Assembly: GCA_019057815.1 (NCBI GenBank)
Contig: JAHLWR010000005.1
Location: 96,001 to 160,000, forward strand
Length of the DNA: 64,000 bases
DNA from: Candidatus Heimdallarchaeota archaeon
GTDB lineage: Archaea; Asgardarchaeota; Heimdallarchaeia; Heimdallarchaeales; Heimdallarchaeaceae
Reading direction: 5' to 3'
In this document: piece after piece, positions 5,562 through 55,856 of the stretch
Position numbering within the stretch: position 1 is the stretch's first letter
Layout of the letters: each line of letters opens with the position of its first letter
Translations under genes and position numbers: made by a program
The notes under the pieces: generated by a model
What the model was told of the DNA's origin: nothing
Database searches by the model: none
Seen by the model: only the letters and a program-made list of their open reading frames with translations

Positions 5562-5563
5562 TT

Positions 5564-30172: not shown

Positions 30173-30197
30173 TTATGCTTTCATAATATGAGAAATG

Positions 30198-30650: not shown

Positions 30651-30859
30651 TATTTAACCTTCTAATCTTTTCTATCTTAGAATCAATGAATGTTTAGCTT
30701 TAAAGGTTAGTATGCCTATCGTAGTACAAAAAAAAACAATTTCGTAGTACATTCTATAGACTCTTTTTTTTGTACAAGGATAGAAAAAAGCTTTAAAAGA
30801 AGAACGGGAGAAGAGAATACTTACAGTCAAGAGTATTACGGGGGCTTAAATAGGAATAT

Positions 30860-32113
30860 TTGAATATAATAATGATGTATCGAGTACAACAAAACCATCT
30901 CAGAGCTTTATCGAAAGAAGAGTACTGGATACTGAAAAAACTTACACGATGCTCAAAGAACGTTTACAACCACACTTTGTGGTTGATAAAAAGAGAGTGG
31001 GAGACAAACAAAACTTTTCTTTCTTACAACAAAGTATATCTTAATATCAAGACTTATGAGTATTACCAACGTCTCCCTACTCAAATAGCTCAACAAACAG
31101 CTAGAAGAGCTGAACAAGCCTACAAATCCTTTTTCAGCTTAATGAAAGTTAAAGAACAGGGAAAATATACTGAACGGGTCAAAGAACCATGGTACTTACC
31201 AAAAGAAGGATGCTTTCTACTCTCCTTCACTCCTGATTATTTTAAAGTGCAAGGAAAAACAATTAGACTCTCACTTGGAAGGTGGATAACAAAAAATCTT
31301 AATAAACGATTCTTGAGATTTAGCTTCCCTTACCATCTCAGAGGGGAAGAAGTGAAAGAAGTTAGAATTCTTCCACGCAATTATGGGATGTATTTCGAAA
31401 TAGAGTTTGTTTATTATAAGGAGAAAGAAAGCCTCGACATTGATGTCACCAAATATCTGGGAATTGACCTAGGATTAGATAATTTTGCAACAACAGTTGA
31501 CACTGACGGGACAGCCTTCATAATCGAAGGACGTGGAATAAAATCTTTTAACCGTTGGTGGAATAAGAAGAAAGCAAAATTACAAAAGAAGTATGATAAG
31601 CAAGGGATCAAAACTGGCACTAAAATGATGAAGTTGGAAAGAAAGAGAAGGTATTATTTGCGCAACTTCATGTCTCAAGCAGTAAATGAAATAATCAAAC
31701 ATTGTAAAACAAACAATATTGGCACCATAGTTGTTGGGGAAATGAAAAATATTAAAAAGAATTGTAAGTTGGGTAAGAGAACTACACAGAATTTCCATTA
31801 TATAACCTACGGTTTATTCAAGCATAAATTGCGAACAAAAAGTGAATTTCATGGAATCGATTATAAGGAAGTTGATGAAGCCTACACCTCTCAAACCTGT
31901 TCTCAATGTGGTCTGAGACGAAAAGCCAATCGTAAATATCGAGGGTTGTATGTCTGCAAAAACTGTGGAACAGTCTTGAATGCAGATGTTAATGGTGCAT
32001 TAAATATCCTCAAGAAAGTAGCCCCTGAGTCTTCCCTTGTGAAGATAGGGGGTAGTGGTCGTCTGAGTCGACCTTCACGTCGCTCTGTTGTTCCTCAACA
32101 TAGTTACGTTTAA
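30860..32113 (+). mobile_element. tnpB: Intact TnpB (IS200/IS605 or IS607 OrfB, no adjacent intact TnpA)
   Basis: LGIDLG, IVVGE, EAYTSQTCSQC, CKNC, NADVNGALNI. Confidence 0.92.
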
Positions 32114-32150
32114 ACCAAAATAAGTCTTTTTACAAAGAACTTAGCTCATA

Positions 32151-33221
32151 TTAGAATGATCGCGAGAGTTCTTTACTTATATCAGTGAGTATATCTTCTG
32201 TAAAATAACTTAAAATGAATTCTGCACGTTCTCGTATAGTAAATTCTGCTACACCTGTAGCCCTTGCAACCATTTTTTGGGTTAAAGCTGAAGAACTGTT
32301 AAAAAGAGGTTTACAAAGATTTTTATCTATTACGTACGCTGTAGCAGCTGCAAAACAAAGGGCATTCTTACCACCCCGTTGGCGAAAGGTTATTCTAGCC
32401 AGCAACTTAAGTGATGCAAGGAACAGAATTTTTTCATAAACAAAGATATCTAAACGATATTTTCTTTGAATTCGCTCATTTATTGGGGGATGGGAACAAA
32501 TTTCAGAGCACATTCTTGCAAGATAATCTTCACTTCTACGAATACAAATTGTAGGTGATTTAACATCAAGTTTTATCATTAATTTGGAGAGATTAGTTCC
32601 TAAAACTCTATGTCCCAACCCCCTGTAAGTTTCGACAATCTCTTTAAGAGTTATGGGACAGTTGTGTTTTTCTTCTCTTACTGCAAGTAATAAACATAAT
32701 GCTGATAATAAAACATGATTCGAGACCTTATCTTTATGTATTTTTTTGTAACTATGATAGAGATAACAAGCTCTATTACGAGTATTATTTTTAATTTTTA
32801 AACACGAAAAAACCTTATCCATAATTTTAAGTGTTCTATAATCTGTTTCTTTTCCCTTTACTGCACTTGAAATATGATAGAAATTTTTGAGTTTTCGAAA
32901 TTTAGCTTGACTATGGTCATCAATTAGTGATCCTTGAGCATCTCTGAATATATACTCCTCAACCGCACCGATAGACGAACCTAATGAACTTACAACTGAC
33001 AATTGATTATTAACTGAAGTATATTGTTGCTTTTTACGCTGTTCTTTTGAAGTAACAGTACCTAGCTGAAAAGAAGAATTTTCAATAACAGGTGCATGGA
33101 CAAGACCACAGCTTTGACAGATACATAACCCGTTTTGTTCTATGATTCTGCCATCACATTCATCACATCTTTGCTCTACATGATCACTGTGTTTACTGTT
33201 CAATGTATCTCCCCCCAACAT
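32151..33221 (-). CDS. tfb: TFB family protein, copy 2 (close paralog of 14008-15039)
   Basis: Shared blocks such as KKQQYTS.NNQL.VVSSLGSSIGAVEEY.FRDAQGSLI and NHVLLSALCLLLAVRE. Confidence 0.85.
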   Translation of the reverse strand: MLGGDTLNSKHSDHVEQRCDECDGRIIEQNGLCICQSCGLVHAPVIENSSFQLGTVTSKEQRKKQQYTSVNNQLSVVSSLGSSIGAVEEYIFRDAQGSLIDDHSQAKFRKLKNFYHISSAVKGKETDYRTLKIMDKVFSCLKIKNNTRNRACYLYHSYKKIHKDKVSNHVLLSALCLLLAVREEKHNCPITLKEIVETYRGLGHRVLGTNLSKLMIKLDVKSPTICIRRSEDYLARMCSEICSHPPINERIQRKYRLDIFVYEKILFLASLKLLARITFRQRGGKNALCFAAATAYVIDKNLCKPLFNSSSALTQKMVARATGVAEFTIRERAEFILSYFTEDILTDISKELSRSF

Positions 33222-39315: not shown

Positions 39316-39831
39316 TTAGAATTTGAGAATTTCAGCTTCCTCGAATATTTCAATGGCTTCATTTACATGTTTTTTATTAAAGTGTGGTTTCAAGGTCATA
39401 ACCTTATCTCTAATTTCGCTACGATTCTTAAATATTTTTGAAAAATATAGTACTGTACTTAACAATTCTAAATCTCTTACATTTGCTACGCTAATCAAAG
39501 AACTTACTTTATCAATCTTACTAATATTAATTTTTCCCTTTTCAGCATCGAATAATCTTTTCCCAGCCTGAGTCAATTCTATTTTGTAACCCATATTTTC
39601 ATTAAGATAAGAAACTTCTATCATGTTAACATTGTCTAAAACATCTACTAAATTAGTTAATTCTTGTGAATATGGTCCGTAAAAATGTATCTTATATGCA
39701 AAATCAAGAGCTTTACCTAAGCCTTCTTGAAGTAAGTAAATTCCCTTTTGAATGTATGTTTTACCAACAGGTTGCTCTGCTTTGTCAATTATTCCTAATA
39801 AATAAATTATTTTTTTCATACTATTAGTCAT
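39316..39831 (-). CDS. YwgA-like (SocA/Panacea-related wHTH) protein, copy 1 (start likely MTNS)
   Basis: GKTYIQKGIYLLQ...YKIHFYGPYSQEL...LELLST. Confidence 0.75.
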   Translation of the reverse strand: MTNSMKKIIYLLGIIDKAEQPVGKTYIQKGIYLLQEGLGKALDFAYKIHFYGPYSQELTNLVDVLDNVNMIEVSYLNENMGYKIELTQAGKRLFDAEKGKINISKIDKVSSLISVANVRDLELLSTVLYFSKIFKNRSEIRDKVMTLKPHFNKKHVNEAIEIFEEAEILKF

Positions 39832-39961
39832 TTTGTCACCTGATTTAACATTCACATAATACATACTATGCGTTGAACACACCTAATATATACTTATATG
39901 CATATATGTAATATACTAGATTGTTTTGAATATTTAAACACTTTGAATACTTTGAACACTT

Positions 39962-41254
39962 TTATTCATTTTTATTAAAAATAGATTGATAAATAGCTCT
40001 TTTATCTTGTATGTATTTTTTGGAGAATGAAGCAATCTCCTCTACCTTTTCTGATAGAGCATATAATCTTCTAATCATCAGATTTTCTAGTGAATTAACT
40101 AATTTTGAAACTTGTCGTATTGGTCGTATTTCGCCATTCATTTCAACATTAATGGTAGATGATTTAATGGGTTCAGTCTCTTCATCAAAGTAGAATCTTT
40201 CTGGATATTTATCATTTAATTTCTCAATCAATCCATCCCAGATAATAAGATCAGCTCTATTAAAATAGATGTTATCATCAACAGGTACCAATTTATAGAA
40301 TTTTCTCTTCAAAAATATATCTCGATAACGTGATTCTGGAAGAAAATTTATTATTTGCGCATCTGTAATCTTTACAAATTCATCTACATTATCTGGATAA
40401 TATCCATCACCTATTTCTTTTTCTAAATATGATTTAATTAAATGAGACAAGTGATAGTCAAGGATTCTTCTATTTTTATGTAAATAAACTTCAGAATACA
40501 TTAAATACCTAGCAATAACAAACTGCTCTAAAGCTCGAATACCCCCACTTTCCCAGTAGACAGGAGTACCGCCTATTTGTTTATCAAATGTTTGAATATC
40601 GACTTCTTTGTCTTTTTCGTAACGAAATGTCTCCAGAATTCTTTCCAAATCAAACTTACCATACATTACACCTAAAGTATATGAATCCCTGAGTAAATAG
40701 TCTATTCTATCTATTCCAACATGTCCAGTTAGTAAATCATGTAGCAAAGTATCATTTGGTGTTATAGGTTCATTGCTTCCTCCCATAATGAAAGAAATTT
40801 TTTTAAGTACATTTTTATTAGAATATCTGTTTAAGATATCCTTGATTTCACCTTGTTCTTGGATTATTTTTGCCCCCATAATATCATGATTTTTAACATT
40901 TTTAAATAGGGGTTTTCCTTCGAATCTTTCACCAGCATGAGAAAAGGGAGTATGACCAATATCATGGAGCAGTGATGCAAGTTTAAAAGATTCTTCATCT
41001 TCTTCCGTTAGATTATGACATCCTTCTTCTTTCAGTCTCTTAAGAATTTTTTTTGATAAGTGAAACACCCCTAAGGAATGTTCAAATCGTGAATGGCTTG
41101 CAGAAGGATAGACCCAAAAGCTATTACCTAGTTGACGAATGAATCTTAATCTTTGGAAAGGAAGAGTTTGTATTAGTTCCTTTTCTATTTCATCTAATGA
41201 AATAAAACCATAGATAGGATCTCGAATGTTTAGTTTCTCTTCGCTTCTTTTCAT
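39962..41254 (-). CDS. HD-superfamily dNTP triphosphohydrolase (YwfO/SAMHD1-like), copy 1
   Basis: IRDPIYG, FQRLRFIRQLG, HSRFEHSLG, LLHDIGHTPFSH, DRIDYLLRD, MYSEVYLHK. Confidence 0.9.
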   Translation of the reverse strand: MKRSEEKLNIRDPIYGFISLDEIEKELIQTLPFQRLRFIRQLGNSFWVYPSASHSRFEHSLGVFHLSKKILKRLKEEGCHNLTEEDEESFKLASLLHDIGHTPFSHAGERFEGKPLFKNVKNHDIMGAKIIQEQGEIKDILNRYSNKNVLKKISFIMGGSNEPITPNDTLLHDLLTGHVGIDRIDYLLRDSYTLGVMYGKFDLERILETFRYEKDKEVDIQTFDKQIGGTPVYWESGGIRALEQFVIARYLMYSEVYLHKNRRILDYHLSHLIKSYLEKEIGDGYYPDNVDEFVKITDAQIINFLPESRYRDIFLKRKFYKLVPVDDNIYFNRADLIIWDGLIEKLNDKYPERFYFDEETEPIKSSTINVEMNGEIRPIRQVSKLVNSLENLMIRRLYALSEKVEEIASFSKKYIQDKRAIYQSIFNKNE

Positions 41255-41414: not shown

Positions 41415-41870
41415 TCACAAGCTAAAAATTCCTTTAACTGTTTTAAGTAGAACCTTCACATCCTCTTTAAATCTTATAATTTGATTTAATATATCTAAAT
41501 CAGCCTTGTATGTTTTTGATTCGTCTTGTATATTGTTGAGATGTATTACTGAACTTTTGTAACCCTCTATGACTCCACTTAAATTTCCATTCTGAACAGC
41601 TTTTATCATTATGTCCATGTTTGCTAAAACAGAATATATTTCATCATTAATAGCATCTGGTTGTTTATATTCAGTGTAATATAATTGCTTAGAAATATTA
41701 TGAGCATCAGTTTCTAGTTCTTCTTGATTTATTTGAAGGAGAGAAAAATAAAACGGATCATGTTTGAAATCCCCAAAATCAAGATTTTTATCAAATTCAT
41801 ATAAGTCGTTTTCATTAGATGTTTTTCTTATCTCTTTTTCTATCCACCTATTAAACTCGTCTAAACCCAT
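41415..41870 (-). CDS. Uncharacterised ~150-aa helical protein ('domain X')
   Basis: Aligns full-length with the C-terminal half of 50116-51057. Confidence 0.75.
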   Translation of the reverse strand: MGLDEFNRWIEKEIRKTSNENDLYEFDKNLDFGDFKHDPFYFSLLQINQEELETDAHNISKQLYYTEYKQPDAINDEIYSVLANMDIMIKAVQNGNLSGVIEGYKSSVIHLNNIQDESKTYKADLDILNQIIRFKEDVKVLLKTVKGIFSL

Positions 41871-41936
41871 CCTAGTTGATAATGTTTACTTTCATTTAAG
41901 TAGTTGACAAAAAGAGTGGTAGTGGATTGAAAGCAA
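41815..41936. repeat. ~120-bp direct repeat (other copy at 44570-44690): promoter plus first codons of gene X
   Basis: TTAGATGTTTTTCTTATCTCTTTTTCT...TACTTTCATTTAAGTAGTTGA...ATTGAAAG shared by both copies. Confidence 0.85.
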
Positions 41937-42381: not shown

Positions 42382-43233
42382 ATGAATAATATTCACAAAC
42401 TATTATTCGTAAACTTAACTGCTTTTAATATGGAATCAGCTATCATTATTTCACTTTTTGCTCTTGCTATCGCTTTTTTAGGATTCTTCTTCCAGTATCT
42501 ACACAAAGGAAAGCTTGTATTTGCTGAACCGCACATTTATTATTTATATAAACGAGAATCAGAGTTTTTTATTACATTTCCAATCACAATAAAAAATACA
42601 GGATCCCATAGTGTAACAATTGATTATCTAGTGGGAGAGGTCGAAGGTACAAATAGCAAATACATATTCCATGTTGATAAGGATTTAACAGAAACAACCC
42701 CAAGACAAGAAAACGAAGATACACCCGATTTTACAGGAATTGAAATAAATCCTAGGTCAAGCCATAAACGTCTAATCAGTTTTGTGTTTAATAAAACTCT
42801 ACCTAAAGACAAATATATATTTGGTCTAAAAGCGCATATTAATGGTAGCAAATACATTTCTGAAGAACAGGTGATGTCTTTCTTTTTTGAAATAGATAGC
42901 GAAATAAAAAAAGAACTGGTGGAAGAAAGTTATCATACAGCACATTTCTATAGAGAGGTGGAATTAAAAGAAATGTCTAGAAACACAAGAATCTTTTATG
43001 GAATATCAACTTATGGTGTTTCATTGCTATTTGGTGCTAGCTTGATATCAGCATTCATTTTTTTTGGAAGTTATCCTACATTAAAACTTGGTACTGTTTC
43101 TTTGGGAGCTTTCTTCGGCATAATATCATTAGGATTATTGATAATAATGATAATTATTGGTAAATTAACTACAACTGACATGTATAATATTGTTACAAAA
43201 GATAGAAGAAAAAAGCATGGTGAAAAAAGATAA
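42382..43233 (+). CDS. Membrane protein with a central beta-rich domain
   Basis: N-terminal TM, ITIKNTG, two C-terminal TMs. Confidence 0.65.
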   Translation: MNNIHKLLFVNLTAFNMESAIIISLFALAIAFLGFFFQYLHKGKLVFAEPHIYYLYKRESEFFITFPITIKNTGSHSVTIDYLVGEVEGTNSKYIFHVDKDLTETTPRQENEDTPDFTGIEINPRSSHKRLISFVFNKTLPKDKYIFGLKAHINGSKYISEEQVMSFFFEIDSEIKKELVEESYHTAHFYREVELKEMSRNTRIFYGISTYGVSLLFGASLISAFIFFGSYPTLKLGTVSLGAFFGIISLGLLIIMIIIGKLTTTDMYNIVTKDRRKKHGEKR

Positions 43234-43268: not shown

Positions 43269-44528
43269 TTAAATTAGAGATTTGAATCCTAGATTTCCAG
43301 CTAGGAATAGAACTAATGCGATGATAATCGCTATTGTTGATGTTATTTCTTTTGTAGAGACTTTACTGTCTTCTTTTATCTCTTTTAAAATACGTCTGAT
43401 AGCCGCATTATCTCTCGATTTTTCAATGACTTCATTTTCCTTTTTTTTCACACTGATTGTTTCTACTATATACCCGAAATGTAATACTGCGGATATCACT
43501 ATACCTCCTCCAGCATAATATTGTGCTAAAAGAAGTGAAAACCAAATATGTACAACAAAATAACTAGCTAAAGAAAAAAGGAGAGATATTGTAGCAGCGA
43601 AGAAAATGCCTGATTGACCAAAACAGTTTTCTGAGTATTCTTTAATGTATTTTTCAATATCTTCCATTTCAATTTCCAGTTCTTTATCCTTTAAATAATC
43701 TCTTCTACAACTCGTTTTACGCTTTTTATCATCATTATCAAAAATAGAAATCAATACAAAAACACTAATTACTATCACTGTTGTAAGGAAAATTTTTAGA
43801 AATAGAAACGGTACAAGTGATACTTGAATTGTTGTATAAAGATCCAAGTTATATTCTGATGAGGCATTTTCTTGATTAAAGTGAAAATTGGATAATTCGA
43901 CCACAAATAAAGAGGAAGTAGTTTCAGAATCTACATTAGGGCTTCTATAAGCTTGATAGGTTTCAGAACCATCAATTACTTTGAAATTTCCCACTATTAA
44001 AGTTAAAGACCTTGATGTTGAATTTTGCCAATCATTAGGTATTTTAATTAAAAATCCACTTGTACTTGATAAATATGAAGTAGCATGAGTTCTGTATAAT
44101 CTAGATTCTTCATCCAACGAATTAGAAGTATAAATTTCTGTATCAGAATCAATTATTAATTGAGCAACCTCAAATTGGAAATAATCAAACAAAGAGTCTC
44201 TAAGAAAGAAGAAATCATAATATAGAGGTACAATTTTCGTTTTAAAAGAAACATATTCGTAACCATTTTGGGGTTTATTAAAACCAAAAAGATAAAACAC
44301 TCTGACTAGAATTTTTTCATCTTTAGAGTATATGTTAAATGATCCAGTTATTGAATAATTATAGTCATTCAAATGATCATGATAAGGATTCTGAGTCGAT
44401 TCTCGAATCGGAGTTGATACAATATAAGGAATGGCTATAACCCATAGTCCAAGAATGTTTAATAAAATTAGAAGAATAAGAAAAGAGCTTTTAGACCTTA
44501 AATTCTGAATTTTACTTTTAAAACCCAT
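43269..44528 (-). CDS. Multi-pass membrane protein
   Basis: N-terminal TM, extracellular domain, about 4 further TMs. Confidence 0.65.
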   Translation of the reverse strand: MGFKSKIQNLRSKSSFLILLILLNILGLWVIAIPYIVSTPIRESTQNPYHDHLNDYNYSITGSFNIYSKDEKILVRVFYLFGFNKPQNGYEYVSFKTKIVPLYYDFFFLRDSLFDYFQFEVAQLIIDSDTEIYTSNSLDEESRLYRTHATSYLSSTSGFLIKIPNDWQNSTSRSLTLIVGNFKVIDGSETYQAYRSPNVDSETTSSLFVVELSNFHFNQENASSEYNLDLYTTIQVSLVPFLFLKIFLTTVIVISVFVLISIFDNDDKKRKTSCRRDYLKDKELEIEMEDIEKYIKEYSENCFGQSGIFFAATISLLFSLASYFVVHIWFSLLLAQYYAGGGIVISAVLHFGYIVETISVKKKENEVIEKSRDNAAIRRILKEIKEDSKVSTKEITSTIAIIIALVLFLAGNLGFKSLI

Positions 44529-44569
44529 AGTTATATCTATAATTCTTATAATTAAAAATGATTGTACTG

Positions 44570-44690
44570 TTAGATGTTTTTCTTATCTCTTTTTCTTTCC
44601 ACTTACTAAACTCGTCTAGTACCATCTTAGTTTATAATATCTACTTTCATTTAAGTAGTTGATAAAAAAAGAGTAGTGAATTGAAAGTAA
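44570..44690. repeat. Second copy of the ~120-bp repeat; truncated gene X start (MVLDEFSKWKEKEIRKTSN)
   Basis: Direct alignment to 41815-41936. Confidence 0.85.
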
Positions 44691-44878
44691 ACTGATTAAA
44701 GATTAAATAAACATGTCCCAAAACTAGTCTGAGTAGACTAGAGCGCCTTTAAGGGAGAAAGAGCGTTTTAACGGAGAAAAGATGAAAAAAGCAAAAACCA
44801 AAGAGTCGAAGTAGTGAGAATTAAGTGTAGTGAGAATTTAGAATTTGATTTTCTAAAAAATTTCGCTTTATAAGAAAT

Positions 44879-45331
44879 TCAAATATATTCAGAACAAATC
44901 TTTGAGAGAAATTCAGATGTAGTAAAACACTGAAATTTGCAGTCTCCTAATTCAAATAACTTAAAATCACTATCATTGCTTATAATAATATCTGCGTTTC
45001 CTCCGTGTGCACAATCTAAGTAAATCTGATCATCCGGATCGTTTATTGTACATGGAGCAGTCATTGGATTAACATATTCAATCTGTCTATTTTGTTCTAA
45101 AGGTAAGATAAAACTACTTTTATAATGAAAATAGCCGTTTGCTATTCGTGAAAATAGATTTTCATAACATTTAGTAACTTCAGGTGTACAAATGACCTTC
45201 ATCTCGTCCCATTTGTATAAAATACAGTTAAACACTTTGTAAGATTCATAAGCTTCTGTGTCAGGTTCTCTTGTAATAAAAAGTTTAAACAAGATGTTAA
45301 TATCAAGAACAATTCTTGGCAAGCATTTCAC
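44879..45331 (-). CDS. PIN-domain nuclease
   Basis: IVLDINIL...DPDDQIYLDCA...ADIIISNDSDF. Confidence 0.88.
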   Translation of the reverse strand: MKCLPRIVLDINILFKLFITREPDTEAYESYKVFNCILYKWDEMKVICTPEVTKCYENLFSRIANGYFHYKSSFILPLEQNRQIEYVNPMTAPCTINDPDDQIYLDCAHGGNADIIISNDSDFKLFELGDCKFQCFTTSEFLSKICSEYI

Positions 45332-45347
45332 TACCTTTCAAGTTCAT

Positions 45348-46778
45348 TCAATTTCTTCTAAATTCCTCTTCAAGTATACGAAATTCCTTTCTAGAGTGTT
45401 CTAAAAATGAAGGAAGTCCATTCTTGAAAAGTCCTTGCTTGTCTATTTCAATAATATCTGCAACAGAGCCTTGCTTTGTCCTCATAAACTCGTAAACAAC
45501 GACATCATCTGCAGTTAATGTTTTATTAGCAATTTTTGTTTGAAAGTGCAACAGAACATACTCTGAGTGTGTTGTTATAAATATTTGAACACCTTTTTTT
45601 GCGGTTTCTATAATTAGATCTATCAATACTGCTTGGAATTTTGGATGTAGATGTACTTCTGGCTCTTCAATTAGTAGTATATCACCTTTCTTGGATAAAA
45701 TGCATTTTATAATTAATCCTGTCAAAGAATTCATTCCTGATCCAACAGCTTTTAGATTTACTGATGCATCCATCTCCAAATCTATTACATCCATAGCTAT
45801 CAAGGGACCTGGCTTAGGGATTATCTCAAAATTTGAATAACCAAATTTTTTTATCCAAAACTCTAGTTTTTTCCAGAAATCTAGATATTTCCTATCCTTA
45901 TAATACATAAGAAATGTTGCAAGAGATTGACCAGAATCATCAAGTGAAATTGTCTCAGGAGGATTATCATCTAAAGCATATACCCATTGTGTAACATGTC
46001 TATTAGCTGGTATAATATTTAATTTTGGAAGATAGGAAACAAGTTTAAATTCCAACCAATCTATAACTAAACCCTCTTGATCAAACTCTCTTGTTCTTAT
46101 TAGATTCCAAAAACCATTAGGAAAACTTGAACTACCACTACCAGTTAAACGACCATACGTAATATTATTAGCATACTCAATTCCAACTTCCTTGAATAGA
46201 GCATTTAAATCTGATTCATAATCACCAAAATCATTTGAAGATGTGGTTATAATTCCGTTTTCATTGAAACTTACATGGTTTTGCCAACTTACAATTTTCT
46301 TGGTTTGTTGGATTAAACTGCTGTAAGTTTTAAATTCATATATCTGTTTATCCTCTGGAGTAGTAATTGATGAGATTAAAATATCACATTGATATGTGTC
46401 TGCTATTGGTTTCTTATATTTTTGATTTCTAGAAACAATAGAATATTCATTTTGATATTCAACTCTTAAGTTTACATTTTTATTGAGATTATGTTTGTTA
46501 AATATTCTTTGATATGAACCCCAATCAGTCAAAGGACCTGTGATTTTCATTTCGTTAATAGATTGGAAAAAAAAACCGATTATTTCGTAAACTGAAGATT
46601 TTCCAGTACCATTTTCTCCTATAAAAAGATTAATCGATTTGCATTCGAGTTCAATATTGGAAATGCTTTTGAAGTTTTGAATATGAATAGATTTCAGCTT
46701 ATTGTATAGATTAATTTGTTCAACTTCTTTTTCAATCAAAGGTTTTTCTTCACCTTTATCCTTTTGTGATTCATTCAT
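45348..46778 (-). CDS. ABC-type (AAA_15/AAA_21-like) ATPase with a DUF3696-like tail
   Basis: NFKSI, GENGTGKS, VGSG, LIEEPEVHLHP, TTHSEY, IDKQG. Confidence 0.88.
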   Translation of the reverse strand: MNESQKDKGEEKPLIEKEVEQINLYNKLKSIHIQNFKSISNIELECKSINLFIGENGTGKSSVYEIIGFFFQSINEMKITGPLTDWGSYQRIFNKHNLNKNVNLRVEYQNEYSIVSRNQKYKKPIADTYQCDILISSITTPEDKQIYEFKTYSSLIQQTKKIVSWQNHVSFNENGIITTSSNDFGDYESDLNALFKEVGIEYANNITYGRLTGSGSSSFPNGFWNLIRTREFDQEGLVIDWLEFKLVSYLPKLNIIPANRHVTQWVYALDDNPPETISLDDSGQSLATFLMYYKDRKYLDFWKKLEFWIKKFGYSNFEIIPKPGPLIAMDVIDLEMDASVNLKAVGSGMNSLTGLIIKCILSKKGDILLIEEPEVHLHPKFQAVLIDLIIETAKKGVQIFITTHSEYVLLHFQTKIANKTLTADDVVVYEFMRTKQGSVADIIEIDKQGLFKNGLPSFLEHSRKEFRILEEEFRRN

Positions 46779-47123
46779 AAGAAAACAACCTCAGTAATAT
46801 CATATTATGGTTTATTCGATATAATTATATTTAGATATTTAATAAGATTGTTGTAAAATTTTGATTACAGTAAAAATATATAAACAACTTATGAATATTT
46901 TATTGCCTAATGTTTAAACTTCATTGAATTAGTCAAATCTAATGTTTCAGAAGTTAATCAAGTTAATCGAGTCAATTTTTATATGCTTTTTCTTGAAAAA
47001 CAAGATACCTCTTCTTTTTTAACAAGACAATTAGAACTGAATTAAATAGATATAATAGTTATTTCCTTACTTTTGTACGCTCAACCCCTCTGGAGTTGAT
47101 CAAGAGGTTTTGGGACATACTTC

Positions 47124-47636
47124 TTAAAGTATATTTGAATCTCTTAATCTATCTAATGCCTCTTTTATCTGATTTTCGTTGAAATGTGACTTAGCAGTAT
47201 GAGTTTGATTTATACATTCAGAATCTGTATCTGTTAGCTTTGAAAAGTATAAAGTTGTACTTAGAAGTTCCATTTCCTCAACAGATGAATTTCCGATTAA
47301 ATTTATAATCTTAGTATATTTGTCTTCGGATATCTCATAATTCTCTTTTTCAGATTCGATAAAGTTTATACCATCTTCTAGAAGATAAATTTCATATTTT
47401 TCATTCTGATCATCATAATTAATTTTTAAAAAATCCATATCTTCTAATTCGTATAGAATTTCAGTTAGATCTTCTGAATATGGTCCGTAATAATGAATTT
47501 TATAGTTGAGATCCAGCTTCTCTTCTAACCCCTCTTGAAGGAAAAATATACCTTTCTGAATATAAGTTTTCCCAACTGGTTTTCTAGAATTATTAATAAA
47601 ATTTAGTACGTTCAAAATTTGATTAATATACGTCAT
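47124..47636 (-). CDS. YwgA-like protein, copy 2
   Basis: PVGKTYIQKGIFFLQEGL...YKIHYYGPYSEDL...MELLSTTLYFSK. Confidence 0.78.
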   Translation of the reverse strand: MTYINQILNVLNFINNSRKPVGKTYIQKGIFFLQEGLEEKLDLNYKIHYYGPYSEDLTEILYELEDMDFLKINYDDQNEKYEIYLLEDGINFIESEKENYEISEDKYTKIINLIGNSSVEEMELLSTTLYFSKLTDTDSECINQTHTAKSHFNENQIKEALDRLRDSNIL

Positions 47637-47703
47637 TTTTCACATCTTCTATATACTAAGTAATTTTTCACTATATAAATTCTTTATATTATTAATTTAT
47701 TCT

Positions 47704-48993
47704 TTATATTATTATATTTTTCTCAATAAATTTTAAAGCTTCTTTCTCAATTTCATCCAATAAGCTCTCCTTAGCATAAAGTCTTCTAGTTTTTATTTTA
47801 TCCAATGAAGCAATTACTTCAGTAGCTCTATGTAAAAGCGTTTTAGTTTTCCCCTGTTCTACGCGAATATATTTTCCACCCTTATATTCATATGTTGATC
47901 TTGTGGGTTTATCAATAAAGTAATTACCTTTATACTTCTTACTAAGATGAACATCAATAATGTTCCAGTTCTTATCTAGTGTCATTTCTTTTTCTCTATT
48001 TGATCTGCATTCCTTTCGGAATAACTGGTATCTATTTTCAAAACTTGGGATACATTTGAAAAAATCTCTATTATAGAAAAAGGGTTTGTGCTTTGATTCT
48101 TTCAACCATTTGAGGATATCAATATCACTTAATGAAAGATATTCATTAATGTCCTCTGGATATGTTTCCATATTCTTTTTCGTCCTTAGAAAATCTTGAA
48201 TTGCATTTATTAAATGATAATTTAGAATTCTAGTAGTTTTATGGAAATATACTTCAGTATACATATAATATCTTGCTAGCACAAAATGTTCTAGAGCTCT
48301 TATTCCACCATTTTCCCAAAAAAGAGGACTTGGTCCTTCTTGACCATCAGCTCTTTCTCCCTTATCTAATCTTATAGTTTCCAAAATTCTCTCCAAGTCA
48401 AACTTACCATAATTAACTCCCACTGATAGAGAGTCTCTTCTTAAATAATCTAATCGGTCAATTCCAACCTGTCCATTTAACAGCTCTTTCGATATCATAT
48501 CGTTTTCTGTTCCATTTTTACGGCTTCCTTCCATTACAAATATTATCCTATCTACAATATTTTTATCATGATGCTTTAACAATAAATCGTTTATTTCTGT
48601 TTCTCGAATAATTCTTGCTCCAAAAATTTCATGTCTATCTCTTTCATTTTTTCCTTTTTTTCTAAAAAGTATATTTTCTCCTACGTGAGAAAATGGTGCA
48701 TGTCCAATATCATGAAGGAGAGATGCAAGATAAAATACTATTTTATCATCATCTGATAGTACATTGTTCTTTAGACAATCAACAATTTTCTTTGACAAAT
48801 AGAATGTACCTAAAGAATGTTCAAATCTTGTATGTCTACCAGAAGGATACACCCACATAGTAGTTCCAAGTTGATGTATATTTCTTAATCTTTGAAATGG
48901 CCAAGTATCAATGATTTTCTTTTCGACCTCATTAATAGGAATAAATCCATACAATGGATCTCGAATGTTAAAGTCTTCATCGTACTTTGGCAC
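47704..48993 (-). CDS. HD-superfamily dNTP triphosphohydrolase, copy 2
   Basis: IRDPLYG, FQRLRNIHQLG, HTRFEHSLG, LLHDIGHAPFSH, DRLDYLRRD. Confidence 0.9.
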   Translation of the reverse strand: MPKYDEDFNIRDPLYGFIPINEVEKKIIDTWPFQRLRNIHQLGTTMWVYPSGRHTRFEHSLGTFYLSKKIVDCLKNNVLSDDDKIVFYLASLLHDIGHAPFSHVGENILFRKKGKNERDRHEIFGARIIRETEINDLLLKHHDKNIVDRIIFVMEGSRKNGTENDMISKELLNGQVGIDRLDYLRRDSLSVGVNYGKFDLERILETIRLDKGERADGQEGPSPLFWENGGIRALEHFVLARYYMYTEVYFHKTTRILNYHLINAIQDFLRTKKNMETYPEDINEYLSLSDIDILKWLKESKHKPFFYNRDFFKCIPSFENRYQLFRKECRSNREKEMTLDKNWNIIDVHLSKKYKGNYFIDKPTRSTYEYKGGKYIRVEQGKTKTLLHRATEVIASLDKIKTRRLYAKESLLDEIEKEALKFIEKNIII

Positions 48994-49646
48994 TAGAACC
49001 TTATAATTGTTGAACTTTTGAATTATTAAATTTATCTACGTTTAATTTCATTTAAAAAGATGAATGTTTAAATATCAAAAGATAGACCAAGAAATTCTTC
49101 TACAGTTCCATCAGAATAATACTTATCTTATTTTTTTGATTGCAATGATTAGACTTCATTAGGGCTTGAGTCTTAAAATTCTTAAATTTCTATTATCAAG
49201 GTTTGAATTCAAAATTAATATCTTTCGATGAGTTAATTCAACTCTCTTCTGAATAGTTCAGAGTGTGTCTACTTAAGATATGAAAAACACTAGATGTTAA
49301 ACGCTGTAAATTTCCTTCTAACCAAATCGTTATTTAGTTCAATAAACAGCCTAACTACGTGAGAGTCGAGTTTTGAAGTATTAGCATATTTAAAGATTTG
49401 ACCGTCACTTCTTAGATTCCTCGGTCTTTGCTTTATTTCCCCTTTTCTCTGTTAAAACACTCTTTCTCCCTCAGAGAAGCTCTAGTCTACTCAAACAAGT
49501 TTTGGAACATGCTTTAATGAATTGAAAGTAAAATGATTAGAGATCAAGAATCAGTCTTACAATAGTATTATTTTAAACCTTCTTTGTAATACTGCTGACC
49601 TACCAATATCCAAATATTCCGACAAAACCTGTTTAGATTAGAGAAG

Positions 49647-49991
49647 ATGAGCAAAACAAGAATGAGCGAGAAAGTAGTGTGTTTTTTAAGCAAGTATGGT
49701 AGAGTTAAACAATTACTGGATGAGAAAGACAGAATCCCTCCTTTCATTTTGGAGGATGATCTTCAAAAATTTGTAGTCTTCGTCTTTGATTGGAAAAAAA
49801 GCGCAGGAACAAACACTATTATCAGGACAGAACAGAGAGCAGAGAGAATGAAATGTGATGGTGTAATTATCATCGCAAATAGATTCAGTCTAAATGCTCT
49901 AGAACAAGTTAATTATCTAAACAAAAGAAGGAATAAAAAGACAATCTTATTTAAAAGAGAAGAAATAGAATCAATATTAGATGCGTGTTAA
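49647..49991 (+). CDS. Small Mrr-like restriction-endonuclease-fold protein with a degenerate active site
   Basis: VVFVFDWKKSAG...DGVIIIANRFS..A pattern; lacks D...ExK. Confidence 0.55.
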   Translation: MSKTRMSEKVVCFLSKYGRVKQLLDEKDRIPPFILEDDLQKFVVFVFDWKKSAGTNTIIRTEQRAERMKCDGVIIIANRFSLNALEQVNYLNKRRNKKTILFKREEIESILDAC

Positions 49992-50115
49992 GAAAAACTC
50001 TATGGCACATTTTACAGACTTGATATTGCGTTAAAACATTGAGGTTTAATAGCTGTTCTGAGAATCATTATAAGTAGCTGTTATCATGAGGTGTTTTTGT
50101 AATATTGTACAATAA

Positions 50116-51057
50116 TCAAGTTGATGGAAAAAGTCGATCAGTATCTTCCAAAAAGATACTCACATTTTTAACAAAAACTTCGATTTGACTTACTGTATTT
50201 GAACTTATATCAACTTCATACAAAACTAATTTTTCCCTTAATTTCCCAAGATTATTTCTTACCCAATTTGATAACTCCAAATAAATTCCTAAAAGTGCTC
50301 CTTCTTGCAACAGCATAAGTATATCCTCAATAGCTTCTAGAGTAGTAATAATAGTTTTGTTTATGCTACTTACTTCTTTGGAATTATTGGAAGTAAGTGA
50401 TTTTAAAATTTCATAAGCCTTTGTGATTATTTCTTCTTTAAAAATCAACTTAAGTAGAGAAAAATACAACTCTCCAATTTGGAAGTCATTCGTTTCCATA
50501 GTTTTAGGTTCACTAGAAATTCCTAGTCTTTTACAACTTGCTTCAGTCTCTTTTTTTATCCAATCAATGAACACAGGCGAATGAACCATCTTTTCTTTAA
50601 GAAGCGCATCTGCGGGAGTAAAATCCCTTAAAGAATTTTGTGGTTTGAAGAATTTTCCTTTAACTTCAGAATAGATGGTATATTCAGGATAATGAGAATA
50701 TACATAGCTTACTAGTTGACTTGAACTGAAATGACCGAGACGAAAATGTAACTCTTGGATCACTTGTTCGTCGAGTTTGGATATACTTTTTTCAAGTAAG
50801 TATTGCTCCCCATATTTGGTAATCTGATAATAGTGATTATTGTTTCTTGCTTCTTCATGAATATATCCATGTTTAACTAATTCTTTAATGTCTTCTTGAA
50901 TCGCTTGACAATATGGACCAAATCTGTATGGTTTGAATTCATAATTTGTTTTAAAACTATAATTTTTTATTAGTAGAAAAACTATTTTCTGAAAATGTAC
51001 TCGACCACTAATTATATGCCAGTATTTTAATAGTAAAAGGAGTAGCGATTTTTTCAT
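50116..51057 (-). CDS. YwgA/Panacea-like N-terminal domain fused to domain X
   Basis: GRVHFQKIVFLL...FKPYRFGPYC...YVYSHYPEY; C-terminal half homologous to 41415-41870. Confidence 0.75.
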   Translation of the reverse strand: MKKSLLLLLLKYWHIISGRVHFQKIVFLLIKNYSFKTNYEFKPYRFGPYCQAIQEDIKELVKHGYIHEEARNNNHYYQITKYGEQYLLEKSISKLDEQVIQELHFRLGHFSSSQLVSYVYSHYPEYTIYSEVKGKFFKPQNSLRDFTPADALLKEKMVHSPVFIDWIKKETEASCKRLGISSEPKTMETNDFQIGELYFSLLKLIFKEEIITKAYEILKSLTSNNSKEVSSINKTIITTLEAIEDILMLLQEGALLGIYLELSNWVRNNLGKLREKLVLYEVDISSNTVSQIEVFVKNVSIFLEDTDRLFPST

Positions 51058-51584
51058 TTCAATAACTAATAATTAATTTTATTTTTAAAGTAGGTAAAAT
51101 AAAATTAGTGTGGTGAAAGAAACATCAATCAAATAAATTTAGGCAAGGAGGAGTAGAAAGGGGAGGAGAGAAGGAAGGAGAGAAAAGTATAGTAGTTAAA
51201 CTTATTCTTCTCCTTCCTAGGAATTAAGTAAATTATTCCAATAGTGTAACATTATTTAATTATATAAAGACAACAAAAATAGAATTTTAATACGAAAATC
51301 AAACATTTTACAAGTTTAATTGATATTGTTAATAATAAAAACAGTAAAGAATTTGTAGAAATTAAAAACACATTAATATTAGAACCACATAATACTCATA
51401 TACATGAGATGTTTGTAGGCTAAATATGGAGATCATGATAAATCTTTGTGAGGATTCAGATGAATATCAAGAAATCCCTCAATTAGAGAATTTTTATCTT
51501 AAATGGCATACAATTTAGTTAGTTCACAGTACTACAATAAACTTCAAATTAATAAAAACATTAGATAAAGACAGGTATTTAAAA

Positions 51585-52445
51585 TTGGAACGTACTATTA
51601 AAGTCACTAAAAACGTTATTGTAAAAAAAAGAGAAAAAATATATTCTAATGTTACACAAAGTTTAGCTTTTCGAACAAAGGAAATCGCTTTTATTATTCG
51701 TTCATATAAAAAGGAAGAAAATGATAGTTATTCACTTATCACAGTAAAAAATTTTTGTGAAAGGAAGAAAATTAAATGGTTTGAACCAAAAAATGAGTTT
51801 ATAGGAGAAACAAAAATTGAGCAAATTGTTGGTTCTGCATTATTATGCGATTTTGGTATAGCTATATTGCCAAAAACTCCAAATGAAAATGTAGGTCTGG
51901 AAATAGGATTACTTATGAGTCTAGCCAAACCAATCTTTATTCTTAAAGGGAGGAACGTCAGTAGAAAGATACCTTTTGATTATGATAGTTTTATTTATAT
52001 TAAGCATAATAGTACACAACAATTACTTAAAGATTTATTAGCTAAACATGAAACACATGAGCTTAGACATGTACAATATGAAGAACTTATCAATAAAATC
52101 CTTAAAAAAGTATTAAAACCTCTTTTTTCCTCAAAAACAGACCAACTAGCGATTGCATTAGGAAAAAGCGGGATTCAAGCACAAAATAATCAAAAAAACA
52201 TTAAGTTATTTATAGAATCTTGGAAGAAAAATCCACAAAAAACTTTGGAAAGTTTAGAACGAGGAATGATACTTGACCTTGCCACTAGAGTGTGTAAAAT
52301 CGAAAATGTTGCAAAATCTGGAACAAATAAATTATGTAAAGGAATAAACAACTATCTTATTGAGGAAATATCAAAAGAGAAAAGTCTTTTTCTTGCTTAT
52401 CAAGGAAAACATGCTATTGCAGATATGTTAATTAACAAAAAATAA
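51585..52445 (+). CDS. TIR-like / nucleoside-deoxyribosyltransferase-fold protein
   Basis: AFIIRSY, CDFGIAIL...NENVGLEIGLLMSLAKPIFIL, IPFD. Confidence 0.65.
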   Translation: MERTIKVTKNVIVKKREKIYSNVTQSLAFRTKEIAFIIRSYKKEENDSYSLITVKNFCERKKIKWFEPKNEFIGETKIEQIVGSALLCDFGIAILPKTPNENVGLEIGLLMSLAKPIFILKGRNVSRKIPFDYDSFIYIKHNSTQQLLKDLLAKHETHELRHVQYEELINKILKKVLKPLFSSKTDQLAIALGKSGIQAQNNQKNIKLFIESWKKNPQKTLESLERGMILDLATRVCKIENVAKSGTNKLCKGINNYLIEEISKEKSLFLAYQGKHAIADMLINKK

Positions 52446-52539
52446 AATTAAAATCCCAAAATTATGTATAATTTCTTAATATCTAAAAGTTTTACCATAA
52501 AAAATAAGAGATATCTTTACAAGATTGTATAAGCGTAAT

Positions 52540-52702
52540 TATTGTGAAAAAAGTCGATTAATATATTCTCAAATATTAACTACACCTTAAATATATTCTT
52601 CAATCTGAATACCTATTTGTGAGTTTATGTCAGATTCATACTGTGCAAATTTTCTTTTAGTATATCAAGATTAATTTTCACATCATCTGACAACATCAAG
52701 TT
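52540..52702 (-). pseudogene. Decayed 3' end of a domain-X gene
   Basis: LMLSDDVKINLDILKE / QYESDINSQIGIQIEEYI*...NRLFSQ aligns with LELSNWVRNNLGKLRE...YEVDISSNTVSQIEVF...DRLF. Confidence 0.6.
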
Positions 52703-52900
52703 TTATTAATATAATAATCTATTTTCAAAAAATATTCTAATCTATGAACGACAGAAAAAGAGTGTAAATAACGTCTTGTGGGTTCTAATAGTTGTAGTAA
52801 CAAATTTCAATATTTTAATGTTACTTGGAGATATTACATGTACATTCTATTAATTTTCGAAAAATTAGTACAATAATTAGACCAGTATTAATAATCTGAT

Positions 52901-54658
52901 TTATTCATCCAAGATATCTTCAAGCAAATTCTTTATTTCAGGATCAATTTCATCTTTTCTCATTTTACTTGCCCATCTTGGAATGTCCCTACTTTTTTTG
53001 AAGGTTTTGTTAAAGGATTTTTCAAAATTTTTTATGTTTGAAATCATGGTTTTATTTGGGTTATATAGTTTAGACAACTCTTCGGATTCTATCTCCCAAT
53101 CTTCTGCAATCACGCGCAATGCTCCTTTAAAATATTCTTCTAGATTTTTCTTTTTAAGAATATAGAGATACTTTTTAATTTCTTCCTCACCTATTGTTCT
53201 CACTAAATCATTATCTTTGCCTTTCATTCTGTCGGTAATTTCTTGCCTTTTATCATCTGGACTAAAATCATCTCTATCAGTTATAATTATATACTTGAAA
53301 CATAGTTTCATTTGAAGCATAAAAGAAAGAGTTAAAACTGCAGATATTTCCCCTGAACCACCAAATTTTATTATTCCAACATATTTTTCCTTACCAAAGA
53401 GCTCTTTTATCCATTCACTAAAAGCACCATAATCTGACTTTCCTTCTACGAAAATTAAATAATCATAGAATAAGAAGTCACTATTTCTTAGATCAAATTG
53501 GTTCTTAAATTCAATATAGTCGTTCATATTTCTTATGGCAGATACATTCATTTTATTTTGATCTTTTGTTATTTTAAAAATTTTTACTCCCTCTTCAATT
53601 TCACCTAAGAGAATTGGGTTATGTGTTGATAAGATTACTTGACCTTCAATATCCTCAATAAAAAGTCTTCGAAGTTCTCTCAAAGCTCTCGGATGTAAAT
53701 ATAACTCAGGTTCTTCAATAATTATCACTTTTTCAGGATTGGTGATACAAATGGCAGCAATGATTACTGCTTCCTTTAAACCATCTCCGAGTTCATGCAT
53801 AGATATTGGTTTTTTTCCCACATTACGAAATATCAGATTTATCCCCCCTCCTGTCTCTGCAGTAATATCTGGTCTTCCTACTGAAAAACTCCATTCGTTG
53901 ACAATATCCTGAAACTTATGGTATAATTTTTTCTTTTCATCATCCTCTGATAAAGCTACATTAAGTAATAATCTTCTTAAATTAGTTCCGTCATTTATAT
54001 AATAATGGCTATCTATAATTGCCTTTAACCCTACATTAATGTTTTCACTTATATGTTCAGACTCTTTTATTTGTCTTTTTGATTGAATGAATACTATATT
54101 TTGCATTATGAATCTTATTACCCAATCTTCTAGTTTAGTTATTTCTCCTTCAAAATCAGATCCAGAACCAAGCATATCTGATCTTCTGTCTATTTCCTTT
54201 CGTAAGAACGTATTGAAAGGAATAGGATCGGGCGATTCTTCTTGCCAAACTCCCAAAAATTTAGCATTAGATATTTCATGTATATCTTCCCTATAATAAT
54301 CAGGAGTTACTTTAATATTGTAAATAACTAAATTGTGCCAAAAATCACGTTTAGCATTGGCTACTTTCAAAAAAGCTCTTGTAAAATCGTCCATATGTGG
54401 AAACAAGTTTTGGATTATTATTTTCACATCATTTTCTTCTAAACTAATACTCAAAATTATTCTAGCTTGAGACCAATTATCTCTATTTATTTCATTTAAA
54501 GATATATATTGATTTGTGATGTTAACAATTATGGCGTCTTGTATAGCAGATTTTCCAACATTGTTTTCTCCAATAAAGCAGTTATATTTATCAAATTCGA
54601 AGTAATAATCTCCATTCCAGCACTGATAATTTGATAATGTTAAACTTCTTATTTTCAT
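52901..54658 (-). CDS. OLD-family ABC-ATPase-TOPRIM nuclease
   Basis: GENNVGKS, LGDG, IEEPELYLHP, STHN, FVEGKSD, DRD. Confidence 0.88.
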   Translation of the reverse strand: MKIRSLTLSNYQCWNGDYYFEFDKYNCFIGENNVGKSAIQDAIIVNITNQYISLNEINRDNWSQARIILSISLEENDVKIIIQNLFPHMDDFTRAFLKVANAKRDFWHNLVIYNIKVTPDYYREDIHEISNAKFLGVWQEESPDPIPFNTFLRKEIDRRSDMLGSGSDFEGEITKLEDWVIRFIMQNIVFIQSKRQIKESEHISENINVGLKAIIDSHYYINDGTNLRRLLLNVALSEDDEKKKLYHKFQDIVNEWSFSVGRPDITAETGGGINLIFRNVGKKPISMHELGDGLKEAVIIAAICITNPEKVIIIEEPELYLHPRALRELRRLFIEDIEGQVILSTHNPILLGEIEEGVKIFKITKDQNKMNVSAIRNMNDYIEFKNQFDLRNSDFLFYDYLIFVEGKSDYGAFSEWIKELFGKEKYVGIIKFGGSGEISAVLTLSFMLQMKLCFKYIIITDRDDFSPDDKRQEITDRMKGKDNDLVRTIGEEEIKKYLYILKKKNLEEYFKGALRVIAEDWEIESEELSKLYNPNKTMISNIKNFEKSFNKTFKKSRDIPRWASKMRKDEIDPEIKNLLEDILDE

Positions 54659-54800
54659 AATAAACCAATATTAGTTGTTATGATTAGTATATAACTTTAA
54701 TTAATAAAATAGAATTATTTTTTAAGTGTAAAAAGTGATAGAAAAAAGGGACTAATAACATTTTGTGGTCTTTAAATAAGTTGTAATAATAAAAGAATCG

Positions 54801-55856
54801 ATGTTAATCAAAAGAAACACTGATCGCTTTGTTAACATAACAAAAGGTATAATAATTGGATTCTTGATAATTAGTCTCTTAATTGAACCTTGTAATGCAG
54901 GATATCCTCGCGGAGAGTTTCATTATTCCAATTTTCTTGAAATTGATCAGACATTAGAATGGGAAGTCCATCTCGAAAAAATTAATGGTTCGTATACTGA
55001 TTATCATCATTATATTGTAGAGGGCGTAGAATTACAGAATGAGGATAATATAACATTAAAAATTCTACAAGATCCTGATGATCCTTCAAGTAATTATGAA
55101 TGGTATGATATATATTTAAATGGAATTAGTATTGGAAACTCTTTAAGTATCTTAAAATTGTATCGTTGGGGATCAGGAGACTTCTTTATTTCTCCTGTCA
55201 CATTCACTAATGAAGCAGGAAATTTTGATTTTTTTAAAGAATACTACAATTATGTGAAAAACGATCACCAATATTGCAATCAAGATATTCAATCCACAAA
55301 TGATAGCGAAGAATGGATGTTCATTAATGTAACTGAAGCTTTAGAATTTACTTTAGATGAAAATTTTTTCACTTCAAAAAACTATTATTGTGAGAAAATA
55401 GACGGGAAATCTTATGATGAAAAACTAATATACACCCTAGAAGTTGTTCAAGAATCATTAGTTGATATTGAAAGAGGTGTTTTAAAATCATTCAGATTTA
55501 ATGTTGATTACTTTTATAATTATACACACGTTGAAGGATTAATAACATTCGAAGAAGGTTTATATCACTTGCTGATTGTAAATACTGATGAAAGTGTAGG
55601 TTATGTGGAGTTTGAGTCCCAATCGGAAGAAAACAGTGAATCTAATAATAACACATCATTCGATAAAAATCTCAATTTATTTGTTTTAGGCTTACTAGTT
55701 TTTAGTGTTACTTTTGCAATAATTGTAGGTATCTATAAATCGAAAAAGAGGAAATTATTAAAAAAAGGTGAAGAGTTACACGAAATCAAAAGAGATAAAC
55801 ATAATAATGATGATGGTTTTAGACACGAAGTAAAGCGAATACTAAATGCTAAATAG
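54801..55856 (+). CDS. Secreted protein with a C-terminal TM anchor
   Basis: Signal peptide, acidic beta-rich domain, TM plus basic tail. Confidence 0.7.
   Translation: MLIKRNTDRFVNITKGIIIGFLIISLLIEPCNAGYPRGEFHYSNFLEIDQTLEWEVHLEKINGSYTDYHHYIVEGVELQNEDNITLKILQDPDDPSSNYEWYDIYLNGISIGNSLSILKLYRWGSGDFFISPVTFTNEAGNFDFFKEYYNYVKNDHQYCNQDIQSTNDSEEWMFINVTEALEFTLDENFFTSKNYYCEKIDGKSYDEKLIYTLEVVQESLVDIERGVLKSFRFNVDYFYNYTHVEGLITFEEGLYHLLIVNTDESVGYVEFESQSEENSESNNNTSFDKNLNLFVLGLLVFSVTFAIIVGIYKSKKRKLLKKGEELHEIKRDKHNNDDGFRHEVKRILNAK

Follow-up and report, generated by a model that had tools for sequence, protein, structure and literature searches.

How did four candidate defence genes come to be enclosed by inverted arms and a long direct repeat, without an intact transposase among them? 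The question is raised by a 4.8-kb unit lying in the window, that is, the whole stretch of 64,000 nucleotides that was analysed. Positions given without a contig name refer to the window, and the features are collected in Table 1.

Table 1. Features of the unit and of its borders.
Feature	Position	Strand	Remarks
Paralogous promoter plus truncated 5' end of 151-aa-like gene	44570..44690	+	87% to 41815-41936; intergenic insertion hot spot
Direct repeat copy 1, 35 bp	44674..44708	+	Ends with TAAAT, probably the real 5-bp target duplication made by the left insertion
IRL relic, 111 bp	44709..44818	+	88% identical to intact IS C33:3682-4770; 16-bp terminal repeat with one change
PIN-domain protein, 150 aa	44879..45331	-	PF13470 (PIN_3)
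ABC/AAA ATPase, 476 aa	45348..46778	-	AAA_15/AAA_21; PADLOC best models NsnB and AriA
IRR relic, 58 bp	47065..47122	+	Closes inner 2,414-bp unit with the left IRL
YwgA-like / DarG-C-terminal-like protein, 170 aa	47124..47636	-	Profile similarity
HD-domain protein, 429 aa	47704..48993	-	HD + HD_assoc_2; dNTP triphosphohydrolase-like
Second IRL relic, 212 bp	49304..49514	-	90% identical to intact IS
Direct repeat copy 2, 35 bp	49515..49549	+	Allele type as in empty sites

The inverted repeats of about 110 bp proposed in an earlier, sequence-only reading are real: the arms (44709–44790 and 49433–49514) are 84% complementary, or 82% identical when compared across 111 bp, and form the strongest inverted pair within the window. 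The proposed length does not hold for the right arm, however, which is almost twice as long, and the arms are not terminal repeats of the unit's own, as had been supposed. Both are copies of the same end, the left end (IRL), of one 1,089-bp IS5-like element, of which the genome has about 10 left ends. The right arm includes the frameshifted start of the transposase gene (at about 49300–49387), so that the reported absence of a mobility gene is true only for intact genes. A third end of the insertion sequence (IS), an IRR, lies inside the unit, 1 bp from the stop codon of the YwgA-like gene. The layout is IRL, [PIN, ATPase], IRR, [YwgA-like, HD], IRL, with IS ends pointing inward around passenger genes and no intact transposase, and the unit is a non-autonomous mosaic of three ends from one IS5-like insertion sequence. 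An origin of the arm as an independent ncRNA was rejected, as in intact copies it runs on into the transposase ORF.

A partner acting in trans, as had been postulated, is available in the same genome, and it is an ordinary IS5-like DDE element instead of the unusual integrase that had been imagined. The intact copy (C33:3682–4770) has 16-bp perfect terminal inverted repeats, a 6-bp duplication and an intact transposase ORF (C33:3809–4747) for a 312-aa DDE_Tnp_1 protein, which matches PF01609 above the cut-off (E 2e-9) and, when aligned, shows the conserved motifs D, D and R-x3-E-x6-K. It is called IS5-like here because the best NCBIfam model, IS5 (NF033579), was matched below its own cut-off (62 bits vs 140; the IS1182 model gave 41 bits), and the closest annotated plasmid matches are IS5-family proteins of 22–25% identity. 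A PDB search with the transposase gave no match. Exact duplications of 5–8 bp flank 14 of the 19 other paired ends of this IS, and a duplication of at least 25 bp was seen at none of the 19. The ends of the unit derive from an IS whose DDE transposase normally makes 5–8-bp duplications at AT-rich sites. Viral contigs held bare 16-mer matches only, and a match of 21 bp in an Actinomycetota bin was taken as chance.

The flanking duplication, originally put at 30 bp, is a genuine direct repeat that meets both ends of the element exactly, but it is longer and imperfect. The segments 44674–44706 and 49515–49547 are 88% identical and, when kept in register, the repeat extends to 35 bp with 29 identical positions and 6 mismatches; among 200,000 random AT-rich pairs, 12 gave a comparable match at the junctions. 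In its first half, the left copy belongs to a 120-bp paralogous promoter and 5' gene segment, which has a second copy nearby (Table 1). In this genome, neither the inner nor the outer unit is flanked by an exact duplication of 3–45 bp, and a 5-bp match to the left junction was seen only across genomes. A dif-like recombination site was also considered and rejected, the longest inverted stem in the repeat being 4 bp.

The length of the repeat is that of a CRISPR repeat, and the genome contains cas1 genes and an array (C18) whose repeat has the word GAATTGAAA in common with the direct repeat. A Cas1-type integrase, either a casposase or a CRISPR Cas1, could on these grounds have moved the cassette in trans while duplicating a CRISPR-repeat-like target. 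We consider this extremely improbable. The ends of the unit are those of a DDE element, neither cas1 nor polB is present in it, and two of the cas1 genes stand beside cas2 in CRISPR-cas loci while the third is broken. The likeness of the direct repeat to the end of an archaeal CRISPR repeat, noted earlier, comes down to that 9-nt word: the direct repeat, aligned without gaps, agrees with the C18 repeat at 18 of 35 positions at most and has nothing in common with the repeat of array C46, and its 14-nt core occurs only twice in the genome, both times at this locus. Duplication of a CRISPR repeat or leader-repeat was rejected accordingly, as no array repeat of the genome matches. Casposon duplications measure 1–27 nt (PMC4046053), whereas the repeat here is 35 bp and imperfect. 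By the definition in the same paper, the unit was not classed as a casposon: no gene for a Cas1-solo or a family B polymerase is found among the four cargo genes, and the terminal repeats are IS ends in common with a DDE element. As a target motif, TTGAAA was likewise discarded, since it occurs next to 7 of 65 IS ends, compared with 11.7% in AT-rich background, which is no enrichment.

The site was then compared with its alleles in related genomes and samples. Empty sites with a single copy of the repeat, for which the sequence-only reading had proposed a search, are present in related contigs (L119/L120). In contigs L085–L090, L073 and L093, an IRR is followed directly by TAAAT or CAAAT and then by the window's right flank from 49550, and this TAAAT is the same as the last 5 bases ahead of the window's left IRL. 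The IRR of these L085-type contigs and that of the window have a diagnostic variant in common, absent from the other 22 right ends listed; in these contigs the IRR is 53 bp long rather than 58 bp, the neighbouring genes are others and there is no partner IRL. Two allele types of the repeat could be distinguished, AAAT in repeat 1 and the IRR-TAAAT-type right junctions, and AAG(A/G) in repeat 2, L091, L092 and the empty alleles. The window's left junction was also detected in L122 and in runs X3 and X4, and its right junction in L091 and L092. The contigs with single junctions are short and do not cover the other end; run X3 covers 43716–48978 in pieces, with the right arm hardly covered, and such contig gaps prove nothing. 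Because two more insertion points were found in the promoter segment and its paralogue, at 44576–44580 (L123 and run X5) and at about 41901 (X3 and X5), the segment is regarded as an insertion hot spot.

Since the IS makes 5–8-bp duplications and relatives hold a normal TAAAT right junction, the 35-bp repeat is probably not the target duplication of a single event, as the alleles also suggest. Instead, we favour, with a probability of roughly 0.7, two separate insertions 35 bp apart at the hot spot that were later joined. The right edge of the 35-bp stretch would have received a first element, with the usual 5 bp duplicated; the left edge would have received a second element of opposite orientation, in a different lineage or in another copy of the chromosome. 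The interiors of both elements may then have been replaced by passenger genes or removed by deletion. Finally, the two alleles would have been joined. In one version, strand transfer by the transposase would have carried the right end of the first element into the second element's cargo, and the IRR does lie next to the YwgA-like stop codon; in the other, two copies of the inner unit would have recombined. The resulting hybrid would take its left flank from the first allele and its right flank from the second, and because it mixes these flanks, the 35 bp between the insertion points would be present twice. By now this arrangement has probably become fixed as a relic, even if its outer ends might in principle be paired by an intact transposase acting in trans. 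Some observations run against two insertions: given the shorter IRR, other neighbours and missing IRL of the L085-type contigs, no intact copy of the whole first element was ever encountered, the left junction expected for the second insertion (an IS end after ~44678) was missing from the relatives searched through homologues of the 419-aa, 114-aa, HD and PIN proteins, and the joining step leaves no signature that this analysis could test.

Short duplications are not universal among DDE elements: IS1549 and IS1634 are exceptions, bordered by direct repeats of 8–514 bp (PMC2266710). In a comparable way, the 4.8-kb unit might have moved once, as a composite, via its outer left ends and with a 35-bp staggered cut, the IRR-TAAAT alleles being later deletions. 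The exact abutment of the repeat on both outer ends, the single-repeat empty alleles and the similar identity of the repeat (83%) and the arms (82%) would all fit, and a left-end/left-end composite of this IS (L052), whose outer ends are flanked by a target duplication, shows that movement in one step is possible, which also counts against the two-insertion model. The duplication in L052 measures 6 bp, however, and none as long as 35 bp occurs elsewhere among the pairs of this IS. In addition, any deletion starting at the inner IRR would need to have ended precisely 5 bp short of the end of repeat 2 and also to bear the repeat 1 allele, and no second copy of the four-gene unit was found in the contigs of 61–83 relatives, mostly incomplete. 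We regard a single jump as unlikely. IS1549 and IS1634 belong to a different family, while the IS studied here was measured at 5–8 bp and shows a long repeat just once, in two allele types. More speculative, and given little credence here, is the proposal that an IS5-like transposase of Heimdallarchaeia pairing two left ends cuts ~35 bp apart and shuttles the ATPase-PIN and HD-YwgA candidate anti-viral modules between defence islands. If true, it would provide an IS5-type case of long-repeat formation and a route for defence-gene flow in archaeal relatives of eukaryotes. With a real 35-bp cut, the locus would also lend itself to the study of long-duplication transposition, a process given no mechanism in a review of 2008 (PMC2266710).

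Insertions of restriction-modification (RM) genes with duplications of more than 30 bp and no mobile gene are on record (PMC2853133), and the surrounding island is full of nuclease and ATPase genes and strongly rearranged from strain to strain. As in that system, defence-type genes lie here between imperfect inverted repeats without a transposase, and an insertion of the same kind could have left the long repeat. In the RM case, however, the repeats are unique and of unknown origin, whereas here they were traced to a resident IS, and the cargo contains no RM gene pair. Where each copy of the repeat stops, an IS terminal repeat starts with its first base, an arrangement that speaks for junctions made by a transposase, and the chance that such an insertion explains the locus seems slim.

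With regard to the cargo, domain profiles agree with the four ORFs previously read as AAA+PIN and HD+YwgA pairs. They are defence-like candidates, judged by profile similarity and island context, and both pairs are also found elsewhere without IS ends. A search of the available literature for YwgA/HD pairs gave no paper. The ABC ATPase (NsnB, E 5e-50) followed by a PIN-fold protein resembles the NsnB-NsnC pair of Menshen, a system of three genes, NsnA (ParB-DUF262), NsnB (ATPase) and NsnC (PMC12065111), and the AriA-type ATPase-effector pairs of PARIS. NsnC, however, combines an inactive PIN with a nuclease, whereas the protein here is a stand-alone PIN_3 without a C-terminal effector domain, and no NsnA gene lies inside or adjoining the unit, nor between the ATPase and the IRR. 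The pair, a short PIN beside an NsnB-like ATPase and nothing more, was not assigned to Menshen.

The anatomy of the inner unit, IRL-[PIN, ATPase]-IRR, is that of a mobile insertion cassette. In MIC231 of Bacillus cereus, derived from IS231, and similar cassettes, as far as described where PMC2266710 and PMC4133298 cite them, IS ends likewise surround passengers without a transposase and the partner acts in trans. Here, in contrast, the ends are IS5-like and not of the IS4/IS231 type, the host is an Asgard archaeon, mobility is presumptive, and no matching duplication flanks the inner unit itself in this genome. TIME-COMP1 (PMC4133298), a non-autonomous composite flanked by inverted miniature elements, and inverted-IS composite transposons also have two copies of one end facing inward around unrelated cargo; the copies flanking the present unit differ in being truncated relics of 111 and 212 bp, IS5-like and not Tn3, with an outer repeat that is imperfect and 35 bp long, and a target duplication typical of the family was not found around the unit in this genome. 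The importance of the finding is modest: an IS5-like family of Heimdallarchaeia with ends that capture passenger genes gives a concrete mechanism for remodelling a variable Asgard island. It also calls for caution, as a long repeat abutting both ends, together with a clean empty site, may stem from two insertions with short duplications and for that reason is no evidence for a Cas1-type integrase. Elsewhere, the passengers at the ends of this IS are a cell-surface gene pair and a glycosyltransferase-like gene.

The inverted arms (44709–44790 and 49433–49514, 84% identity) and the flanking direct repeat (44674–44706 and 49515–49547, 88% identity) described in the sequence-only reading were both confirmed. 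When aligned in register to the element ends, the direct repeat is 35 bp long with 6 mismatches and abuts both ends; a comparable junction match was obtained in 12 of 200,000 random AT-rich flank pairs. The arm sequence was found about 10 times in the window's genome, and both arms are the left end (IRL) of an IS5-like element. Each had been taken to be ~110 bp long, but the right one extends to 212 bp, including a frameshifted transposase start. Because both arms are left ends and a right end (IRR) lies inside, the unit reads as IRL, PIN, ATPase and IRR, followed by the YwgA-like and HD genes and an IRL facing inwards.

Features of the cassette and of its intact parent element
Feature	Position	Strand	Description
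Left-arm IRL relic			111 bp
Right-arm IRL relic			212 bp; carries frameshifted transposase start
Inner IRR	47065–47122		58 bp; 1 base from YwgA-like stop codon; profile search
PIN_3 protein		minus	
AAA_15/AAA_21 ATPase		minus	
YwgA-like protein		minus	170 aa; like C-terminal part of DarG
HD + HD_assoc_2 protein		minus	
Intact IS	C33:3682–4770		1,089 bp; 16-bp perfect terminal repeats; 312-aa transposase; 6-bp target duplication

We call the parent element, found intact on contig C33, IS5-like. Its transposase keeps the catalytic motifs, passes the DDE_Tnp_1 cut-off, and has its best scores on the IS5 models, though these lie under the cut-off. Full-length copies (79–94% identity) were observed in four relatives and in metagenomes, and a more distant IS family with a near-identical terminal repeat has several copies in two closed genomes of the host's family. 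Also in the window's genome, a more distant transposase relative (C19:41478–42391) adjoins an inverted IRR of the C33-type IS at 42614–42728, and a 174-bp MITE without target duplication (C35:72297–72470; L019) is built from both ends, left and right, of the C33-type IS.

Exact duplications of 5–8 bp were present at 14 of the 19 other paired ends, and none at five. A repeat of at least 25 bp was found at none of the 19 (two pairs have a common flank and one sits in a simple repeat); one pair showed a 20-nt match with 4 mismatches, within AT-rich sequence. The family builds cargo carriers: C35:84406–87695 is an IRL-cargo-IRR element with a 6-bp duplication, and its gene pair was found again beside IS ends at other sites. 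This pair (~360 and 340 aa) is enclosed by, or adjacent to, ends of the same IS at that locus (L015, L042), at C24:106517–107848, and at L080, L081, L076, and L055–L057, with 5–6-bp duplications in places. Given their N-terminal hydrophobic stretches, both are probably secreted or surface proteins. That this IS mobilises cargo is better supported by the recurring pair than by the window locus. Locus L052 has the layout IRL-transposase-IRR-gene-IRL, which matches that of the window, with a 6-bp duplication at the two outer left ends; at positions 5011–7556, a full but decayed IS is followed by a 407-aa gene, part of a glycosyltransferase-like cluster, and by an inverted left end of 81 bp.

The four ORFs of the cargo have domains matching the AAA+PIN and HD+YwgA pairs proposed earlier, with the YwgA resembling the C-terminal part of DarG. 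The top models for the ATPase were Menshen NsnB and PARIS AriA. By the definition in PMC12065111, these genes do not form a Menshen system: the ATPase is NsnB-like, but the NsnA gene is absent and the PIN protein has no second domain. The similarity of the HD protein to dGTPase models is partial only. The domains and island context make a defence role plausible. ATPase-PIN pairs (L074, L124, L127) and HD-YwgA pairs (L094, L095, and window 39316–41254, whose HD protein is 44% identical to that of the cargo) also exist without adjacent IS ends, so both gene pairs acquired these ends secondarily. Most of the unit was recovered in pieces, at ~91–98% identity and apparently at the same site, in X3, a run of a different study; the relatives searched yielded no copy at any other site.

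The unit is comparable in operation to a mobile insertion cassette or non-autonomous composite (PMC4133298; PMC2853133), whose anatomy it has, but the family-typical duplication is missing around it in this genome. It resembles known passenger-carrying IS derivatives, with putative movement as a whole. Neither this IS nor its cassettes were found described in the two archaeal papers searched, a set with incomplete coverage.

A CRISPR-like direct repeat and a Cas1-type integrase had also been suggested, and neither was supported. The repeat agrees with the genome's CRISPR repeats at 18 of 35 positions at most, and within the genome its 14-nt core is confined to the window locus. Two cas1 genes adjoin cas2 in cas operons and the third is broken, while the unit contains neither cas1 nor polB, the defining casposon genes (PMC4046053). 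The broken cas1 (C36:5922–6906; L084) is in two pieces with internal stops, and neither cas2 nor polB was recognised by eye among the ORFs around it.

The empty sites with a single repeat copy anticipated in the sequence-only reading were observed. A contig of X5, a run on another sample of the same study, passes from 44654 through 24 letters equivalent to 44655–44676 to 49518 and continues to 50000, and is an empty allele with one copy; in L119 and L120, which come from other data sets, a 419-aa gene and the promoter segment are accompanied by one copy and ~25 bp of right flank. The duplication is therefore tied to the insertion history. In L085–L090 (six records of one allele), L073, and L093, the IRR runs directly into TAAAT or CAAAT, which leads into the window's right flank from position 49550, while TAAAT precedes the window's left IRL and TAAAC that of L122. 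Together with the window's TAAAT, these junctions amount to an ordinary 5-bp duplication where the 35-bp stretch ends. The IRRs of these loci and the inner IRR of the window have a common diagnostic variant, absent from the other listed right ends. Because repeat 1 (44674–44708) groups by its AAAT allele with the L085-type right junctions, and repeat 2 (49515–49549) by AAG(A/G) with the empty alleles and with L091 and L092 (strains with the window's right junction), the two copies seem to derive from two alleles.

The 35-bp repeat was probably not made in one event. In the simplest history, two IS insertions would have occurred 35 bp apart, the interiors of both would have been replaced, and the two would have been joined at the inner IRR; we infer the join itself, as well as the second insertion's left junction. 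A single jump of the unit with a long staggered cut is unlikely: IS1549 and IS1634 are known to have long variable repeats (PMC2266710), and two left ends can act together, as L052 shows, but such a jump would require a deletion landing exactly on the 5-bp register and bearing the other allele.

The promoter and first codons of a 151-aa protein (41415–41870) are duplicated at 44570–44690. This promoter region is an IS insertion hot spot, since further IS junctions were found at 44576–44580 (L123; X5) and, within the paralogous promoter, at ~41901 (X3, X5). In L073 and L085–L087, compared with window 28003–32626 and 49544–54849, other genes (polyprenyl synthase, NAL1-like, LRR-kinase) stand in place of the DNA left of the IRR, with a junction to a fragment of the 32151–33221 gene; therefore, ~17 kb of the island differ between strains. 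On the short contig L093, the IRR and the upstream region of a 114-aa gene form tandem repeats with 581-bp spacing. Over its C-terminal half, a 313-aa Panacea/SocA-like protein (50116–51057) is similar to the 151-aa protein (27%, E 2e-8).
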